Shown here in pieces: positions 3,548 through 19,245 of a stretch of DNA of 24,045 bases; the stretch's first letter is position 1, and each line of letters begins with the position of its first letter. The notes under the pieces are model-generated. The model was not told the origin of the DNA. It searched no databases and saw nothing but the letters and a program-made list of their open reading frames with translations. This DNA is from a virus (Duplodnaviria > Caudoviricetes): positions 1 to 24,045 of IMG/VR virus record IMGVR_UViG_3300020043_000469; one strand, 5' to 3'. The translations under genes were made by a program, and so were the position numbers.

Positions 3548-4349
3548 AAGAAACGTAGTCGATCGTGTTTGTTGTACTGGTGAAGCTGCCTTCGGTTGTT
3601 TCAATCATTGCCAGTCCTGTCTCAAGAACTCGGGGGTTCGTGGTTGGCAGCAGGAAGCGACGCATGGCGCGGACGTAGCGGTTAGAGGTATTGTCTTTGC
3701 TGTGAGTGCCTGTAACTCCGTTATTGAAGTTAATAGTGTAGGCTTCATCAGCATCGTATTCAAATGATGTCCAATAGGTGTGATTTGCGAAATTGCCTAA
3801 TCCTGCGTTATGCAGCTTAACTCGCATCTCGCTCAATTCGCCCACTGATGGCAGGAACCAATCGCTAAATCCGTTCAGCACCAAGTCATTGGCAAGCCGT
3901 GCAGCGATGCCAGCAGTTGCGCAACCTGCCACGATTGCTGCGGTATTGGCAATGCCTTGACCTATCTGCCCAGACAAGCCTCCAATGAACGTCCCCTTAC
4001 ACCCCCAAGGCGCATTCGTAGATTGGTCTGATTCCGCCGTTATGTAGGCATAACCGCTGTCGGTAAATGTGTACAAGCCGCCCTGCACGAAGTCGCCAGC
4101 AGCGTAGCTGGCAGGGTTCTCGGTGACCTCGTAGCGATACTGCCCCTTCGTCAACGCGCCCAACGTAAACGCGAATTTGTCGTACCTGCTCTCGTAGCTG
4201 CTTAAATTGTCAACGGCGTTCAGGTAGATATCAGTGGCTTCCAGTGTCGCCAAGTTCGTCAGCCGCAACCGGTAGACCGTCGCACTGTTCGCGCGCTCCG
4301 TCCACGTCACCGCTATCGTGTTGCTTTGGCTGGCTTTCAGGTATAGCAT
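3540..4349 (-). CDS. Putative virion protein carrying a DUF1566/Lcl-like (C-type lectin fold) domain
   Basis: Start ATG 4349 (MLYLKAS) follows a promoter motif. DWFLPSVGEL...YWTS...YVRAMRRF matches the DUF1566-type signature (W.LP...EL, YWSS, VR.VR). Confidence 0.7.
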   Translation of the reverse strand: MLYLKASQSNTIAVTWTERANSATVYRLRLTNLATLEATDIYLNAVDNLSSYESRYDKFAFTLGALTKGQYRYEVTENPASYAAGDFVQGGLYTFTDSGYAYITAESDQSTNAPWGCKGTFIGGLSGQIGQGIANTAAIVAGCATAGIAARLANDLVLNGFSDWFLPSVGELSEMRVKLHNAGLGNFANHTYWTSFEYDADEAYTINFNNGVTGTHSKDNTSNRYVRAMRRFLLPTTNPRVLETGLAMIETTEGSFTSTTNTIDYVSYD

Positions 4350-5433
4350 GAAGTTCTTTAGTGTAAATATCCCTTGCCACGTTTTTGTACAAATTGAACC
4401 TGCGCCGCGTGATCTCATCAATGTCCAGCCGCTTCTGCATCTTAGCGGTCAGCCTGTCCGCCATCTCACGCACCATCGCTGGCTCGTTAATCATTGCCTT
4501 CATCGACTTGTACCACTTCTTCGGTTGCTTTTCGTCAACAAGCACGCCATCCCATCCGTCCGTGATGCAGTCAGCATACATGCAGACGTTGCTGGCGATT
4601 ATCGCCTTGTTCATCCACGCAGCCTCCGTCACCTTCAACTCCGACTTGAGCCTGTTGAACTTATTGTCGCGAAGCGGCGCAAGCGCAACGTCAACGAAGT
4701 TGTAGCCGCCAACGTAGCTGTAAATGTCCGCCGCCTGTATCCGTCCGTAGTTGTTGTTCTTGCCCTTGTTGCTGAACACCTGCTCATATTGCTGATATAT
4801 CGGGTTTCCTTCATTCCACCCGGCTAAGTACAGCATGTAGCGCCCTTCCAGCGTGTGATCGTCGCAGAGGCGCGACAGTGGCAGCTCAAGCAACGCCACG
4901 TCCTCGGTGTGCTGCGCCGCGCCAAAGTAGCCGAAGCGTAGGCGCTCGCTCTTGGTCGGTTGCGGCTTGAACTGGTCGTACAACAGGTGCGGCACGTTCT
5001 CGCATATGGTCACGTTGCGGTTGAGCTTCATGATCTCATCGCGCAGGTACGTCGTGGTCGTGATAATCGCATCCGCAAGCTTGACGTGTTCAGCGACAAC
5101 GGCAGACATGTTGGTGTCGTGGTAGTGCTTGTAGAAGCTATGCCCAGTCCCTAAATACCAATAATCATCCATATCCAAGATAATCTTCGCACCGTACTGG
5201 CGCAGGATGTCGGCGACAGGCTTGACTGCCTCAATAGGTCCTGCAATCCAAGTGCGATTATACAAGAACAGGTCAATCGTCCGCAGTTCTTCGTCGCTCA
5301 TGGTGCGCACGTCAGCGATGCTCACGAACTCGGCCTCGCTGCCAAACATCTCATGCACCCGGCTGCTTGGCATCTCCAAGCGATAGTAGCTGCACCCTGT
5401 GGGATGCTGGTTATAGACAATACATACACGCAT
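4231..5433 (-). CDS. Glycosyltransferase (GT-B-like)
   Basis: GCSYYRLEMP, IILDMDDYW and DVALAPLRDNKFNRLKSELKVTEA motifs are typical of phage GT-B-like glycosyltransferases. Confidence 0.8.
   Translation of the reverse strand: MRVCIVYNQHPTGCSYYRLEMPSSRVHEMFGSEAEFVSIADVRTMSDEELRTIDLFLYNRTWIAGPIEAVKPVADILRQYGAKIILDMDDYWYLGTGHSFYKHYHDTNMSAVVAEHVKLADAIITTTTYLRDEIMKLNRNVTICENVPHLLYDQFKPQPTKSERLRFGYFGAAQHTEDVALLELPLSRLCDDHTLEGRYMLYLAGWNEGNPIYQQYEQVFSNKGKNNNYGRIQAADIYSYVGGYNFVDVALAPLRDNKFNRLKSELKVTEAAWMNKAIIASNVCMYADCITDGWDGVLVDEKQPKKWYKSMKAMINEPAMVREMADRLTAKMQKRLDIDEITRRRFNLYKNVARDIYTKELHAIPESQPKQHDSGDVDGAREQCDGLPVAADELGDTGSH
4364..4391 (-). promoter_or_regulatory. Putative phage late promoter TGTACA-N14-GATATTTA
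   Basis: Bipartite motif 14 nt upstream of ATG 4349, embedded in the 3' end of the glycosyltransferase gene. Confidence 0.65.
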
Positions 5434-14755: not shown

Positions 14756-15237
14756 GCGGCATAACCCCAAACGTCACCCATGTTCATCTGCAACATCGCC
14801 TCTGCGCGCTGCTTGTGCCCCTTGCCGTCGTATGCCTTCGGCCACCACTTCCACACCCTGCACTCGCGTGAAAGCGTCGCCAAGATTAGGTGTAAGTTGT
14901 CAATCACGCCCTGCTCGCTGCTCATATCGTAGGAGTACAACTCCACAAGCTGCCCTGCGCTGATTTCGTCAATGAACCACTCAAACTGATACCACTTTCC
15001 GGCGACCTTGGCGTGACGCTTGGCCGCCAGTGACGATAGCGATTTGCTGGCCGCGTTGATCTCACTGTACCGCTTGTTGACCTCCGCGATCGTCATCTTC
15101 TTGACCTGCTCAATCGGGATGCCGTCGAGAACGGCGATGACGCCGATCTTTTTGTCGCTGGTCGTGTAGATGCTGTTGGCCTCAATAGACACAATGCGCT
15201 GGAACTGGTCGACGGTGATTTTGTTGAGGATGCTCAT
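14665..15237 (-). CDS. Putative tail assembly chaperone (gpG-like)
   Basis: Start ATG 15237 (MSILNK) overlaps the upstream TGA; contains the GCT TTT TTT TTG slippery site near its 3' end. Confidence 0.65.
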   Translation of the reverse strand: MSILNKITVDQFQRIVSIEANSIYTTSDKKIGVIAVLDGIPIEQVKKMTIAEVNKRYSEINAASKSLSSLAAKRHAKVAGKWYQFEWFIDEISAGQLVELYSYDMSSEQGVIDNLHLILATLSRECRVWKWWPKAYDGKGHKQRAEAMLQMNMGDVWGYAAFFLQLSEPLLTIMRKSLTEQGTTTTTAKA

Positions 15238-16106
15238 GCTTTCAAAGCTTGGATGTATAATGCGTAAAGTTGCTTGCACACGCTTTCGGCGCGGTAGTCT
15301 GCAATGTCGCTAGGTACAGTCAGCATCTCGCGTTTTGTCACCGCCCCTTCAGCGTTAAAGTGATAGCTCATCACCGCCTTGCCGCACATCCACGCTTCAA
15401 TCGTTGTCCTACCGATGTGCAGGCCACAGGCAAAGTGACAACCCTTGACCAGCGTTTCGATGTTCGACACCGCCTCGCAGTAGTGGACAGGATAGCGACT
15501 TTTTAAGTCTTCGAGGAAGTCGCCGTTATTGTAGCCTACCAAGACAAAAGGCCTGTCGTTATCCTTACACCACGCCGCCGCATCGTAAATCATAGCCTTG
15601 CGCATGTAATCAAGCGTTCCGGCCAGTAAAACGTAACCGCCATCCTGTATTCCGTCCGTATTAAATCGGGTATAATCGACAGGGTTGTAGATGACGTGTA
15701 TCTTATTGAGAGGAACGCCATATCGCGCGTGTATTTCGTCTTTCTCATGCTGCGCTATGCTGATGTACCTCTTGATGCTTTCGTGCTTCACAGGTCGCTC
15801 TAAATCGAAATAGACGCTGTGTATCGTCGCAACCTTCGGCGTTTGTGGGAATAGCGCACACAAGTAATCAGTGACCTGCTTGTGCTGAACGTGAATGACG
15901 TTGTAGGCTTCGCGCCCTGTCAACTCTGCAAATGGTTTAATCAGCACCCCCGCCATCTGTGCCTCCGCAATCATCGGGTAGTCCATGTATGGTGACGTGA
16001 CCGTGACCTTATGCCCCATCGCCTTCAATCCCTTGGCAACCTGCAAGACGTAAAGCTCCGACCCTGTGTACTGGCGGAAGAACAATGATGCGATTAGTAT
16101 GTTCAT
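15234..16106 (-). CDS. Glycosyltransferase (GT4/GT-B-like)
   Basis: MNILIAS...TGSELYVLQVAKGLKAMGHKVTV, VIHVQH, IHVIYNPVD and GRTTIEAWMCGK motifs. Confidence 0.8.
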   Translation of the reverse strand: MNILIASLFFRQYTGSELYVLQVAKGLKAMGHKVTVTSPYMDYPMIAEAQMAGVLIKPFAELTGREAYNVIHVQHKQVTDYLCALFPQTPKVATIHSVYFDLERPVKHESIKRYISIAQHEKDEIHARYGVPLNKIHVIYNPVDYTRFNTDGIQDGGYVLLAGTLDYMRKAMIYDAAAWCKDNDRPFVLVGYNNGDFLEDLKSRYPVHYCEAVSNIETLVKGCHFACGLHIGRTTIEAWMCGKAVMSYHFNAEGAVTKREMLTVPSDIADYRAESVCKQLYALYIQALKA

Positions 16107-16570
16107 GTCTTCTGTTTAATTGGTCGCGCTGGGTTGCCATACGCAAGAAAGCCGTCGGGAATGTCACGCGTCACCACACTGCCGGCGCCGATCAAAGCGT
16201 CAACGCCGATGCGCACTCCGCAGACAATCGTGCTGTTTGCCCCGACGCTGCATCCTTTGCAAAAGTAGGTAGATCGAAACCTGCCGTTGTTCTTCCAGTC
16301 GCCGTAGACGCTTGGGTAGTAGTCATTGGTAGTTACCACGTTTGGACCGATGAATACATCATTGCCAATGATGCATCCGTGGTAGATCAACGCGTGATTT
16401 TGGATTTTGACGTTGTTGCCAATTTGAACGCCAGTGTCAATGTGCGCGCCTTCGCCGATGACGCAGTTGTCGCCGATTTTAGCACCTGTGCGGATGTGAG
16501 CGAATGCCCATACTTTGACGTTTTCACCAAGTTCAACGCCATCTTCAATTATTGCGGTTGGATGTATCAT
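16103..16570 (-). CDS. Hexapeptide-repeat (left-handed beta-helix) acetyltransferase, WbpD/WlbB-like sugar N-acetyltransferase
   Basis: IHPTAII start, IGDNCVIG/IGNNVKI repeats, IGAGSVVTRDIP...YGNPARPI end. Confidence 0.85.
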   Translation of the reverse strand: MIHPTAIIEDGVELGENVKVWAFAHIRTGAKIGDNCVIGEGAHIDTGVQIGNNVKIQNHALIYHGCIIGNDVFIGPNVVTTNDYYPSVYGDWKNNGRFRSTYFCKGCSVGANSTIVCGVRIGVDALIGAGSVVTRDIPDGFLAYGNPARPIKQKT

Positions 16571-16582: not shown

Positions 16583-17790
16583 CTACATGATCACATACCT
16601 GCCCCCTGCGTTGGCTGATAGCTTGTTGAGCGCGACGTAACGCACCGCGTCAATGGCGTGGTTGTACTTATCAATCGGCACTCCCAACGAGGCACCTGTC
16701 TTATCCGTGTCCCACGTGTAGTTCCTCAACTCCTTAATCAAGTTCGTCGATTCGCGCGTGACCAGTAGCGGCTGCCGCTTCAAGATGTCGATGCTGTTGC
16801 GGATGCTATCTGCGCCCTTCGTCGCCGGGTGTATATTGAAACCAAGGCGATGCACCTCTTCGATGCTCTTCGGCTCTGCACTGTCTGCGATGATCGGCCA
16901 CGACCTGCCGATTCCCAGCTTGCGCAGGTGTTCAGCGATGTCTTGGTTCGTCAGGCCGTTTTGGTAGAGCAACTCATGCAGGAGGATAGCACTGCCTCGC
17001 TTGTAGACCGCCACGACCGCCGTGGGATCGTTCGTGTACCCCCAGTCCAAGCCGATGGCTACCAGCTTATCACCAGCAAAGTCGATGCCGTCCACCTGCT
17101 GCCAATCGTCGAAGACCACGCCCTGCAATGATCCGACTTCACCCAAGCCGTAGACCTTCCACCAGTTCGCCCAGTACGTCGATGTCGCCGCCTTGACCTG
17201 CGCCGCTTCGATGTCGTCGCGGATCGTAGCCGGAAGCGCCTCATTGTCGCGGTAGGTCAGCACAATCAACTCACTGTCTTGCTCTGCCAATACTTCGGTA
17301 TGCGCCCAGAACTCCGACACAGGGTTGAAGTCGATGTAGATGGCTTCGCTCGTTCTGATGGCCAGCTGATGGTACGCCTCGAAGTCGATGTTGTTGGCCT
17401 CATTGATGTATAGCACCTGCCGCCGTGCGCCGCGTAGCTTCGCCTCTTGATCTGCACTGAAGAACTCAATCGTGCTGCCGTTGGCAAAGGTGTATGTCAG
17501 CAGCGTCTTGTTCCAGCCTTCATCACGCCAGCGGTTCGTCCACTGCATGACCTTGCCAAAGTCCTTCATCGCGCCACGGCGTAGATGCGGTATGGATTCA
17601 GATACGACGCTGATCTCGGTCTTAGCCTTGGCAGCTATGTGGATCAGGACTGCGAGTATTGCGTATGTTTTTCCTCCCCCGCTCGTTAAAGCGGGGGCAA
17701 GTATCCAGCGGATGTCCCGCCCTGAATTACCTTCTTTCGGGCAGTCATCCGCCGTATTCGGCTGATTGCTGTTGTGTACTTAAAGTCCAA
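16583..17790 (-). CDS. terL: Terminase large subunit (PBSX/XtmB family), coding sequence interrupted by a 32-nt insert in Walker A
   Basis: TTG 17790 reads MDFKYTTAISRIRRMTARKKVIQGGTSAG (to 17704). The other frame resumes KTYAILAVL... at 17671 and runs into the 328-aa ORF with LRG, YINEAN (Walker B), DFNP, GLDWGYTNDPT, ADSAEP and NHAIDAVRY. Joined product 391 aa. Confidence 0.9.
17672..17706 (-). other. Candidate translational-bypass element: GGA-TACTTG-CCCCCGCT-TTAACG-AGCGGGGG-A-GGA
   Basis: Matching GGA codons at 17706-17704 and 17674-17672, perfect 8-bp stem (17697-17690 with 17683-17676), in-frame TAA (17688-17686) in the loop. The insert is directly visible; the mechanism is inferred. 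Confidence 0.65.
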
Positions 17791-17807
17791 CGGCTTCGGT
17801 GATTGCG

Positions 17808-18848
17808 TCAGTCATTGGTGACGTTGTTGATGCGTGCCTGTGCTATTGCTACATATTCGGCCTCGCGTTCAATCCCGATAAATCCAAAGCCTTCGAGTGC
17901 CGCCGCTTTGCCTGTGCTTCCTGAACCCATGAACGGATCGAGGACTACTCCGTTGGGAGGTGTCACGAGGCGGCAGAGGTAGCGCATGAGGTCGGTAGGC
18001 TTGACTGTTGGGTGGTGGTTATTCTCCCCCCTATCCGCTTTGCTCGCCTTTGCGCAGTAGAAGAAGCGTGCCGAATCTTTCAGCAGGTCTGTGGCCTCCT
18101 CGCTGCCATCGTGAATGAAGTTGGCAGGCCAGCGGCCTTGAGTTGCCGCCATCGGCTCGGTCAAATTGTTGGCAAGGCTATCGCGTCCATGCCATGCGGT
18201 ACCGCCACGGCCATTTGGGTAAGACCATCCGGCGTTATCGCCCACCCTTCCTCCATCCACGTTGATAGCCCCTGTGCCGTATTGCAGCACGTTCTCCGCA
18301 ACAGTGCCAATCAGCGGCTTGCGTGCTACGGTGATAGGCTCAAGGGCAGGCTTGAGCGCAGTTCCCCAGCCTTGCCATTGCTTCGCTTCGGGGGTGGCGG
18401 GGGTGGTGATTTGCATAACCCCGCCACGCTCTATGTCGCCACCAAAACAATTATTTCCTTCGTACCCAAAACTTTGTAGTTTTTTTACTTGTCCAACCAC
18501 CTCCCGCTCCGCACCCGCCGCCTTATCAATCGCCTTGCTCACATCCAGCGACTTCGGGAATCCGCTGCCATACACCCACGCAATCATGTCGCGGATCTCG
18601 AAGCCTGCATCCTCAATCCTTACCGCCATTCTATGCTGTGTCCTCGTTCCGGCGAAGGCCAGCAGATGCCCACCGGGTTTCAACACCCGAATGCACTCCG
18701 CCCACACCTCAACGCCCGGCACGTCGTAGTCCCACTTCTTGCCCATGAATGACAGGCCATACGGCGGATCAGTGACGACAGCGTCAACGCTGCAATCAGG
18801 CATAGACCGCAAGACCTCAAGGCAGTCGCCGTGTATTAGTTCAGTCAT
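17808..18848 (-). CDS. DNA methyltransferase (N6-adenine/N4-cytosine, beta-class motif order)
   Basis: N-terminal VTDPPY catalytic motif, HPTVKP, and C-terminal VLDPFMGSGSTG SAM-binding motif. Confidence 0.92.
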   Translation of the reverse strand: MTELIHGDCLEVLRSMPDCSVDAVVTDPPYGLSFMGKKWDYDVPGVEVWAECIRVLKPGGHLLAFAGTRTQHRMAVRIEDAGFEIRDMIAWVYGSGFPKSLDVSKAIDKAAGAEREVVGQVKKLQSFGYEGNNCFGGDIERGGVMQITTPATPEAKQWQGWGTALKPALEPITVARKPLIGTVAENVLQYGTGAINVDGGRVGDNAGWSYPNGRGGTAWHGRDSLANNLTEPMAATQGRWPANFIHDGSEEATDLLKDSARFFYCAKASKADRGENNHHPTVKPTDLMRYLCRLVTPPNGVVLDPFMGSGSTGKAAALEGFGFIGIEREAEYVAIAQARINNVTND

Positions 18849-19245
18849 TGAATAGCGGCTGCTCGATTTTGACTTCGTTGTGGGTTTTCTCCGCTAAGCC
18901 GTTAAGGCGCTGCGTGATGCTCGTGTTGTAGATGCCGCACATACCGCCCCTGATCTGGTCAGCGCGGATCGTGGTCTTGATGCGCGTACAGACATCCACA
19001 TAACGGTCGTATCTCCCATCGGGATTTGTGAAGTATTGATCGATGCTTTTTCCAATGCCCTGCTCATAGCAGTAGACCTGAAAGCCCTCAAACGTCAGCG
19101 GGTTTTCGCGCTCACGATGCACCTTGTCAGCTTTAACGCCAACATAGTCCTCAACAAGCACAGGCGTTGCCTTCGCTTTCTTGCAATAGTCGGAAAACGC
19201 ATCCCACATTGCCTCTGGTGTTTCAAAGTTCAACGGCTTTGCCAT
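18841..19245 (-). CDS. terS: Terminase small subunit (gp3-like DNA packaging protein)
   Basis: FETPEAMWDAFSDY, PLTFEGFQVY and GIYNTSITQRLNGL motifs; upstream of terL. Confidence 0.75.
   Translation of the reverse strand: MAKPLNFETPEAMWDAFSDYCKKAKATPVLVEDYVGVKADKVHRERENPLTFEGFQVYCYEQGIGKSIDQYFTNPDGRYDRYVDVCTRIKTTIRADQIRGGMCGIYNTSITQRLNGLAEKTHNEVKIEQPLFND

Follow-up and report, generated by a model that had tools for sequence, protein, structure and literature searches.

A homing-associated hairpin cassette in the Walker A motif of a freshwater phage large terminase, probably skipped by translational bypass

How is a working DNA-packaging motor made when its gene is cut within the ATP-binding loop? 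The question is posed by a freshwater phage in which the large terminase gene (terL) is interrupted in this way. The window, that is, the whole stretch of DNA analyzed, is a 24,045-nt linear phage contig rated about 72% complete, with terS, a methyltransferase gene, terL, the portal gene, and capsid-region and tail genes on the minus strand. The relevant features are as follows.

17704..17790, minus strand: terL 5′ part; TTG start, 29 codons, the last seven encoding QGGTSAG, the opening of the Walker A segment
17704..17706, minus strand: candidate take-off codon GGA, encoding the Gly that precedes the catalytic Lys
17672..17703, minus strand: 32-nt coding-gap cassette inside the terL Walker A motif, ending in GGA
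17698..17703, minus strand: 6-nt spacer TAC TTG, from the take-off codon to the stem
17676..17697, minus strand: hairpin with a C-rich 5′ arm, a UAAC loop holding an in-frame TAA (17688–17686) and a G-rich 3′ arm
17672..17674, minus strand: candidate landing codon GGA; the stem ends 1 nt earlier
16583..17671, minus strand: terL 3′ part, opening with the Walker A Lys-Thr and running for 362 codons up to the stop, with ATPase and RNase H-like nuclease motifs intact
17808..18848, minus strand: DNA methyltransferase gene (phrog_67), in the slot that holds a homing endonuclease in related carriers
18841..19245, minus strand: terminase small subunit gene (phrog_606, E 2e-13)

A first-pass annotation had described a 32-nt insert splitting Walker A between two GGA codons, and its coordinates were right. 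Removal of the insert joins the 29 codons from the TTG at 17790 to the 362 codons past it, restoring, as had been claimed, a 391-aa terminase with its downstream ATPase and nuclease motifs. The TTG is aligned with ATG, GTG or TTG starts of relatives, and the 3′ part matches phrog_2 (E 2e-35), as well as Terminase_3 and Terminase_3C. An 11-codon ORF (17780–17815, minus strand) starts at the stop codon of the methyltransferase gene and overlaps terL by a few bases; it may be a gene remnant, or may couple translation to the weak TTG start, and locus L742 shares its opening codons with another continuation. A hexapeptide-repeat acyltransferase and a glycosyltransferase are encoded directly past terL, and a second glycosyltransferase near the portal gene (15234–16570 and 4231–5433, minus strand). 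No tRNA genes were found in the window or in four carrier genomes; a permuted tmRNA called by ARAGORN in carrier genome G004 (L687, 18014–18649, minus strand) may be spurious.

The insert is predicted to fold with an energy of −19.3 kcal/mol (z −4.24), a value equaled by none of 200 shuffles. Its stem has eight Watson–Crick pairs (seven G-C, one U-A) and a closing U·G pair below the UAAC loop, and a 3-bp lower extension recruits the GG of the landing codon. A search of Rfam gave no match at gathering score, and three matches far below it. The in-frame TAA of the loop was confirmed; frame 0 reads five sense codons before it, so that the stop is the sixth codon after take-off. Among the best 80 IMG/VR loci, 55 are uninterrupted at the same codon, two (L008 and L015) carry the identical 32-mer, 17 carry another 36-mer, and six could not be parsed. 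The insert is also present in a contig from a DNA run (X1 record 6), which crosses both junctions without a gap. Assembly error is ruled out by this contig together with the two identical 32-mers.

Inserts at this site form a family. At least 48 distinct inserts of 32–50 nt, occupying all three frames, were found in related terL genes by four viral pattern scans and one metagenome scan (at least 213 locus rows, at least 87 distinct local contexts). Rows without BLAST confirmation as terL were excluded, and for L754 and L756 the take-off codon was assigned manually. Counts out of 48 below refer to the variants listed among these at least 48, which are not mutually independent. Three of the five scans imposed CCCC and GGGG, so hairpins of other make would escape them. 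Two viral scans fixed the upstream Gly only, leaving hairpin and landing triplet free; of at least 119 matches from one and at least 120 from the other, 82 and 5 were accepted as terL. The 15 variants so obtained, among the matches listed, all have a CCCC-GGGG hairpin and a GGN end. One 36-mer recurs in 33 of the 82 terminase rows of a Gly-anchored scan, again among the matches listed. The landing triplet was imposed by no pattern for the Ser or Ala class, nor for the 15 Gly-scan variants.

Cassettes at other positions were also sought. A completed scan for cassettes after the Walker A Lys gave 21 loci, none of them terL, and a completed scan before the Walker A Ser gave none among 24 loci, the single terL cassette there being a known Ser-class insert. 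No insert variant was seen in a pattern scan of a genome collection (at least 120 loci from 3 of 64 parts). A search for second cassette sites found none that was convincing in the window, four genomes or 41 long carrier loci, in a scan that missed the known G005 cassette. Its candidates in other genes were rejected, one being an intergenic terminator-like match and the other an out-of-frame reading of a known cassette.

Comparison of the 48 listed variants shows what is held constant at the boundaries. The insert follows a Ser codon of Walker A in 8, an Ala codon in 18 and a Gly codon in 22, and insert lengths modulo 3 are divided 21/10/17. The last triplet of the insert repeats the preceding codon at positions 1 and 2 in 44/48, and in all 12 new variants from the metagenome scan (two hand-assigned; among the matches listed). 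The four listed exceptions, GCG/GTA (three) and GCC/GTT (one), come from at least two lineages, and in each the sole change at positions 1 and 2 is C to U at position 2. The anticodon of tRNA(Ala) has G35, and the exceptions fit G·U pairing to the same tRNA(Ala) through this base. Third bases are the same in 17 variants, differ within purines or within pyrimidines in 13, and cross classes in 18. Identity of the two codons is thus not a requirement. Landing codons end in A in 31/48, which is indistinguishable from the A-rich linker in which they lie (160/302).

The hairpin is tied to the 5′ boundary. Its C run begins 5, 6 or 7 nt past the take-off codon in all 48 listed variants (4, 36 and 8, respectively), and U stands at insert position 4 in 46/48. 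Counted from the first C to the loop, stems are 7–10 bp long in the listed variants. The arms covary: at the three stem positions past the C run, pairing is kept in 48, 48 and 47 of the 48 variants by as many as six kinds of base pair. The 3′ linker is 1–16 nt long and A/U-rich (238/302 nt, 79%), and the 48 listed variants share no 3′ boundary mark besides the codon match. Because this sole conserved mark is a codon match, kept in phase at three sites, with its one kind of defect absorbed by G·U pairing to the tRNA, re-pairing of a peptidyl-tRNA is favored as the process that reads it.

The same anatomy was weighed as that of a mini-intron, excised from mRNA by an endonuclease and a ligase or by a trans-acting RNA, with the 2-nt repeat a relic of the splice site or of target duplication. 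A protein-recognized RNA would be an equally good fit to a conserved structure whose distance from the 5′ boundary is fixed, to the U kept at position 4 and to the unconstrained third base, and introns with nucleases are common in terminase genes. Such excision nevertheless gives no account of a repeat that never leaves codon phase at any of the three codons, or of a 3′ linker that varies from 1 to 16 nt with a boundary conserved in the codon match alone. Known junction rules also fit poorly. In group I introns the 5′ exon ends in U and the intron in G, an arrangement possible in 1/48 listed variants; the length is moreover too short for a catalytic core and, as noted, Rfam gave no match at gathering score, and a group I intron was rejected. 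Bulge-helix-bulge introns have a 4-bp helix flanked on either side by a 3-nt bulge at the junction; the central helix is feasible in 4/48, and this type was likewise rejected. The insert is retained in contigs from three RNA libraries (two studies), and none of the joints omits precisely 32 nt; two joints do cross the insert, and both carry the AGY-Ser flanks of uninterrupted alleles. The RNA contigs extend just 11–23 nt past the landing junction, and their evidence is weak because such contigs can be DNA and can drop rare forms. Taken together, we consider RNA excision unlikely.

If the insert stays in the mRNA, ribosomes would meet the stops within it. Of the listed inserts, 47/48 contain an in-frame stop, which is the first codon in 6, the second in 25 and a later one in 16; all 21 listed inserts that preserve the frame are among the 47. 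L411 has a 38-nt insert with no internal stop, and its shifted frame stops 19 codons later. Stops within the first two codons are confined to frame 0 (31/48, compared with 0/48 in each other frame; shuffled spacers gave a mean of 6.9 and a maximum of 15). The U of the codon-2 stop would face A or G for in-register pairing in 34/48, and a purine-purine mismatch comes next in 32/48, so part of the role of this stop may be structural. The codon directly after take-off is an ordinary sense codon in 42/48, the TAC of the window included, and a stop in 6/48. In these six TAA-after-take-off variants (L470, L720, L450, L550, L401 and L480; about three lineages) a codon-2 stop occurs in 0/6, compared with 25/42 in the rest, and the two listed variants with a base other than U at position 4 both belong to this group.

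Alternatively, a working protein might arise with the insert unskipped, through a one-base frameshift, readthrough of the stop or a restart of translation. The downstream frame of the window does stay open through the insert, and the hairpin has the geometry of a frameshift stimulator. The shift would, however, add about 11 residues within the P-loop of the window protein, and across the family the inserts occupy all three frames. Simple frameshifting or readthrough fails because the downstream frame is blocked by a stop inside 34/48 listed inserts, and restart fails because an in-frame start open to the Lys is present in just 11/48. These routes, as a group, are considered highly improbable.

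Whether the split genes work at all was addressed from their pattern of substitution. Four carrier genomes rated 97–100% complete, one of them with terminal repeats, have one terL match each. Downstream of the insert, dN/dS was 0.03–0.10 in 11 carrier pairs and 0.04–0.06 in 4 non-carrier pairs, and upstream of it the pooled carriers gave 0.11; pairs were hand-picked from the tree and several are near saturation. The split genes thus appear to be functional and under purifying selection on both sides of the insert. The reading set against this is that carrier terL is dead, defective carriers being packaged by co-infecting relatives while the cassette spreads by homing alone. Since carriers recombine with non-carriers, and the two are mixed on the tree, the selection seen downstream could have operated in non-carrier backgrounds. 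Yet deep carrier clades hold dN/dS near 0.04–0.05 while their cassettes diverge with compensatory changes, and the 5′ peptide and the landing triplet, both needless in a dead gene, are conserved. The same inserts also recur across many contigs. We therefore regard a dead gene as very unlikely.

Excision at the DNA level was considered as a further source of intact genes: infrequent slippage between the short repeats would remove the hairpin, and terminase would come from the copies that had lost it. Stable palindromes flanked by short direct repeats are indeed prone to deletion. The repeat is only 1–3 nt, however, none of 65 uninterrupted rows equals the joined flanks of any carrier, and contigs of the DNA run examined contained no deletion or exact skip. 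Such excision is regarded as extremely improbable.

The distribution of the cassette points to horizontal movement. A quick-method tree built from 67 downstream proteins mixes carriers with non-carriers (14 changes, at least 8–9 of them forced by strong branches), and one identical insert occurs in separate well-supported clades. Pfam searches placed HNH_3, mostly with NUMOD4, directly upstream of terL in ten carrier loci, above or near cut-off, and gave weak GIY-YIG-like matches there in three. With profiles derived from the carrier neighbors themselves, a nuclease was found within 800 nt upstream of terL in 23/68 carrier loci, covering 15/30 variants, and in 0/46 non-carrier loci (among the loci listed). 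The Fisher p of 1.5e-6 for this association overstates it because the loci are related. What lies between terS and terL varies: the window has the methyltransferase there, and relatives have nucleases of NUMOD4-HNH or GIY-YIG-like type, small ORFs or no gene. HNH, HNH_3 and GIY-YIG had no match in the window, in which about 72% of the genome is present.

The window gene itself records such an exchange. Its 5′ end is identical at 76/78 nt to L472 and L442, which bear an HNH nuclease, and at 61/78 to the uninterrupted L004 and L006. Over the next 1000 nt the relation is reversed, with 65% identity to L472 and L442 and 948/1000 (95%) to L004 and L006. The insert differs from that of L472 and L442 by two bases, and the switch falls no more than 6 nt past the cassette end. 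By sequence comparison, the window terL is chimeric, its 5′ part and insert agreeing with those of nuclease-bearing phages; we infer that the cassette end is the edge of a homing tract, from which the position of the switch would be expected. We propose that the cassette disrupts the target of a homing endonuclease whose gene lies immediately upstream of terL, and that it travels with this nuclease, much as the T4 gene 60 gap does with MobA. The window genome would then have retained the cassette while a methyltransferase gene came to stand in the nuclease's slot. A role for the insert in limiting TerL relative to TerS had been suggested. No evidence for it was found, 55 of the best 80 loci having no insert, and the nuclease link counts against it, pointing to a selfish origin.

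The full-length terminase is thus probably made by translational bypass, with a peptidyl-tRNA re-pairing from GGA to GGA across a homing-associated hairpin cassette, and with no need for the A-site stop of T4. The core of the earlier proposal of ribosomal bypass was upheld, since many phages have an insert at this site, stem arms covary, the flanking codons change in step and both halves are under selection; several of its details were not. As a first step, peptidyl-tRNA(Gly) would reach the take-off codon while the stem, 6 nt on, occupies the mRNA entrance; translocation stalled by the hairpin would loosen the codon-anticodon pair, so that no A-site stop is needed. Carried beyond the hairpin, the tRNA would then re-pair with the earliest matching triplet in the A/U-rich 3′ linker; two-out-of-three pairing would be enough, and U·G would be tolerated. 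Decoding would restart at Lys, and ribosomes that do not hop would reach the in-frame stop.

Take-off during stalled translocation is proposed because the stem spacing resembles that of dnaX. In dnaX an 11-bp stem lies 5 nt past the slippery site and translocation is slowed about 15-fold, according to the accessible part of the report (PMC8861025). There and in HIV gag-pol the stems are 11–12 bp long (PMC8861025), compared with 7–10 bp here, where the stem starts about 6 nt past the recoded codon (5 nt in dnaX). The terL cassette differs from both in having no slippery heptamer and in an outcome that would be a skip of 32–50 nt rather than a −1 shift. Since the A-site codon is ordinary sense in 42/48 listed variants, the trigger used by T4 is absent, and stalling is put forward as what outcompetes normal decoding.

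Landing would not always be unambiguous. The 3′ arm of the window hairpin provides two further in-frame Gly codons immediately before the landing codon, and this run of three Gly codons ending at the landing site makes mis-landing possible. L754 has a second in-frame TCA 6 nt ahead of its landing triplet; it is the one earlier linker match to take-off observed, compared with 3.9 expected among the 48 listed variants, so avoidance is weak. Take-off one codon later was tried and rejected, the first two bases there matching the landing triplet in 2/42 listed variants with a sense codon at that position.

Two auxiliary signals had been suggested by analogy with gene 60. A GAG does lie 7 nt before the landing codon, as a mini-Shine–Dalgarno sequence might, but it belongs to the stem's 3′ arm, and the sister insert that is more common has GGG there. 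G-rich triplets stand 5–7 nt before landing in 35/48 listed variants, mostly as the stem's own G run. In the accessible part of a study of Bacteroidia, ribosomes largely ignore Shine–Dalgarno sequences (PMC10798248), which weakens this idea further. The basic character of the nascent peptide is not specific: K/R content is similar in 47 carrier peptides (5.3) and 21 non-carrier peptides (5.05), and at this level no element-specific signal of the T4 kind was seen. The segment 17707..17721 (minus strand) has a mean energy of −7.5 in 63 carrier contexts and −5.8 in 38 non-carrier contexts, a difference confounded by ancestry.

Natural programmed bypassing, in the accessible parts of the literature cited here, comprises the T4 gene 60 family, terminases of the Streptomyces phage Hau3 type and the byps of yeast mitochondria. 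The accessible text on T4 gene 60/MobA (10.1101/2022.08.31.505936; 10.1101/2024.12.09.627546) describes much that the terL cassette shares: an essential phage gene interrupted within a conserved motif by non-coding sequence, take-off and landing codons that form a pair, with a one-codon shift of take-off possible, a covarying hairpin that often has a GNRA loop, an A/U-rich 3′ part, in-frame stops, and a link to an HNH or GIY-YIG nuclease kept after nuclease loss. Codons readable by one tRNA are also found at both ends here (GGA/GGA in the window, and the positions 1–2 match in the family). The differences, as far as the same text goes, are several. The T4 family interrupts the topoisomerase II large subunit (at Gly46 or Asp45), and take-off is from Gly or Asp, whereas the terL family uses Ser, Ala or Gly. 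T4 has a stop or hungry codon in the A site, where the terL family has a stop in 6/48 listed variants and sense codons in the others. The T4 stem includes the take-off codon, whereas the terL stem begins 5–7 nt past it on a CCCC/GGGG base. Crossing of wobble classes at the third base (18/48) goes beyond the tolerance of the T4 family, and the nuclease lies upstream of terL but splits the gene in T4. Because host gene, A-site codon and stem position all depart from the T4 pattern, the terL cassette was not assigned to T4 gene 60/MobA.

The Hau3 and StrepC.1 terminase inserts are closer in host gene, being short frame-disrupting terL inserts at conserved junctions. They are 7–10 nt long and begin with the hungry codon UUA, and bypass was demonstrated at one site by mass spectrometry in E. 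coli, in the part of that report available (PMC10732093). The terL hairpin family differs in having 32–50 nt hairpins and varied first codons (TTA in 1/48 listed), and in phage group, the Hau3 type occurring in Streptomyces phages whereas the cultured relatives of the window terL infect Bacteroidota. The byps of Magnusiomyces capitatus, per the available part of their description, are read by mitochondrial ribosomes at 81 sites in many genes, with an unused codon in the A site (PMC5009743); the terL family has one cassette per genome, at three Walker A codons alone, with varied first codons. No description of hairpin gaps in a terminase Walker A motif was found in the literature searched, which covered few subscription papers, and a term search for "terminase" in the accessible text of 10.1101/2022.08.31.505936 gave 0 matches.

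The host is likely a member of the Bacteroidota. The nearest cultured relatives infect Flavobacterium and Bacteroidales at 36–50% identity, and 1306 phage records match, all below 60%. In the three cultured-phage records examined (Fpv5, Fpv11 and BD26P1), terL is uninterrupted. Among 401 genomes in the phylum of G001 there were two terL matches, one uninterrupted (L681) and one unparsed (L680); as this search gave no carrier, the host assignment is drawn from cultured relatives only. A PDB search with the N-terminus of a relative gave nothing useful.

Opinion is evenly poised on whether the family constitutes a separate class of bypass. In such a class, a downstream hairpin at the mRNA entrance would launch the hop with neither a stop nor a hungry codon in the A site, and landing would tolerate two-out-of-three pairing, even U·G at position 2. 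The inserts would be protein-invisible immunity elements for homing nucleases, moved across three P-loop codons and common in freshwater phages. The at least 48 natural variants, with lengths of 32–50 nt and a geometry unlike that of the three known systems, amount to a ready-made mutational scan, which would probe whether hopping depends on a stop in the A site and on a signal from the nascent peptide, and how much mismatch a P-site tRNA tolerates on re-pairing. Given the cassette family, terL is truncated by gene callers in many common freshwater phages. Besides introns and inteins, the cassette would add a third route by which homing nucleases break their targets in essential genes.
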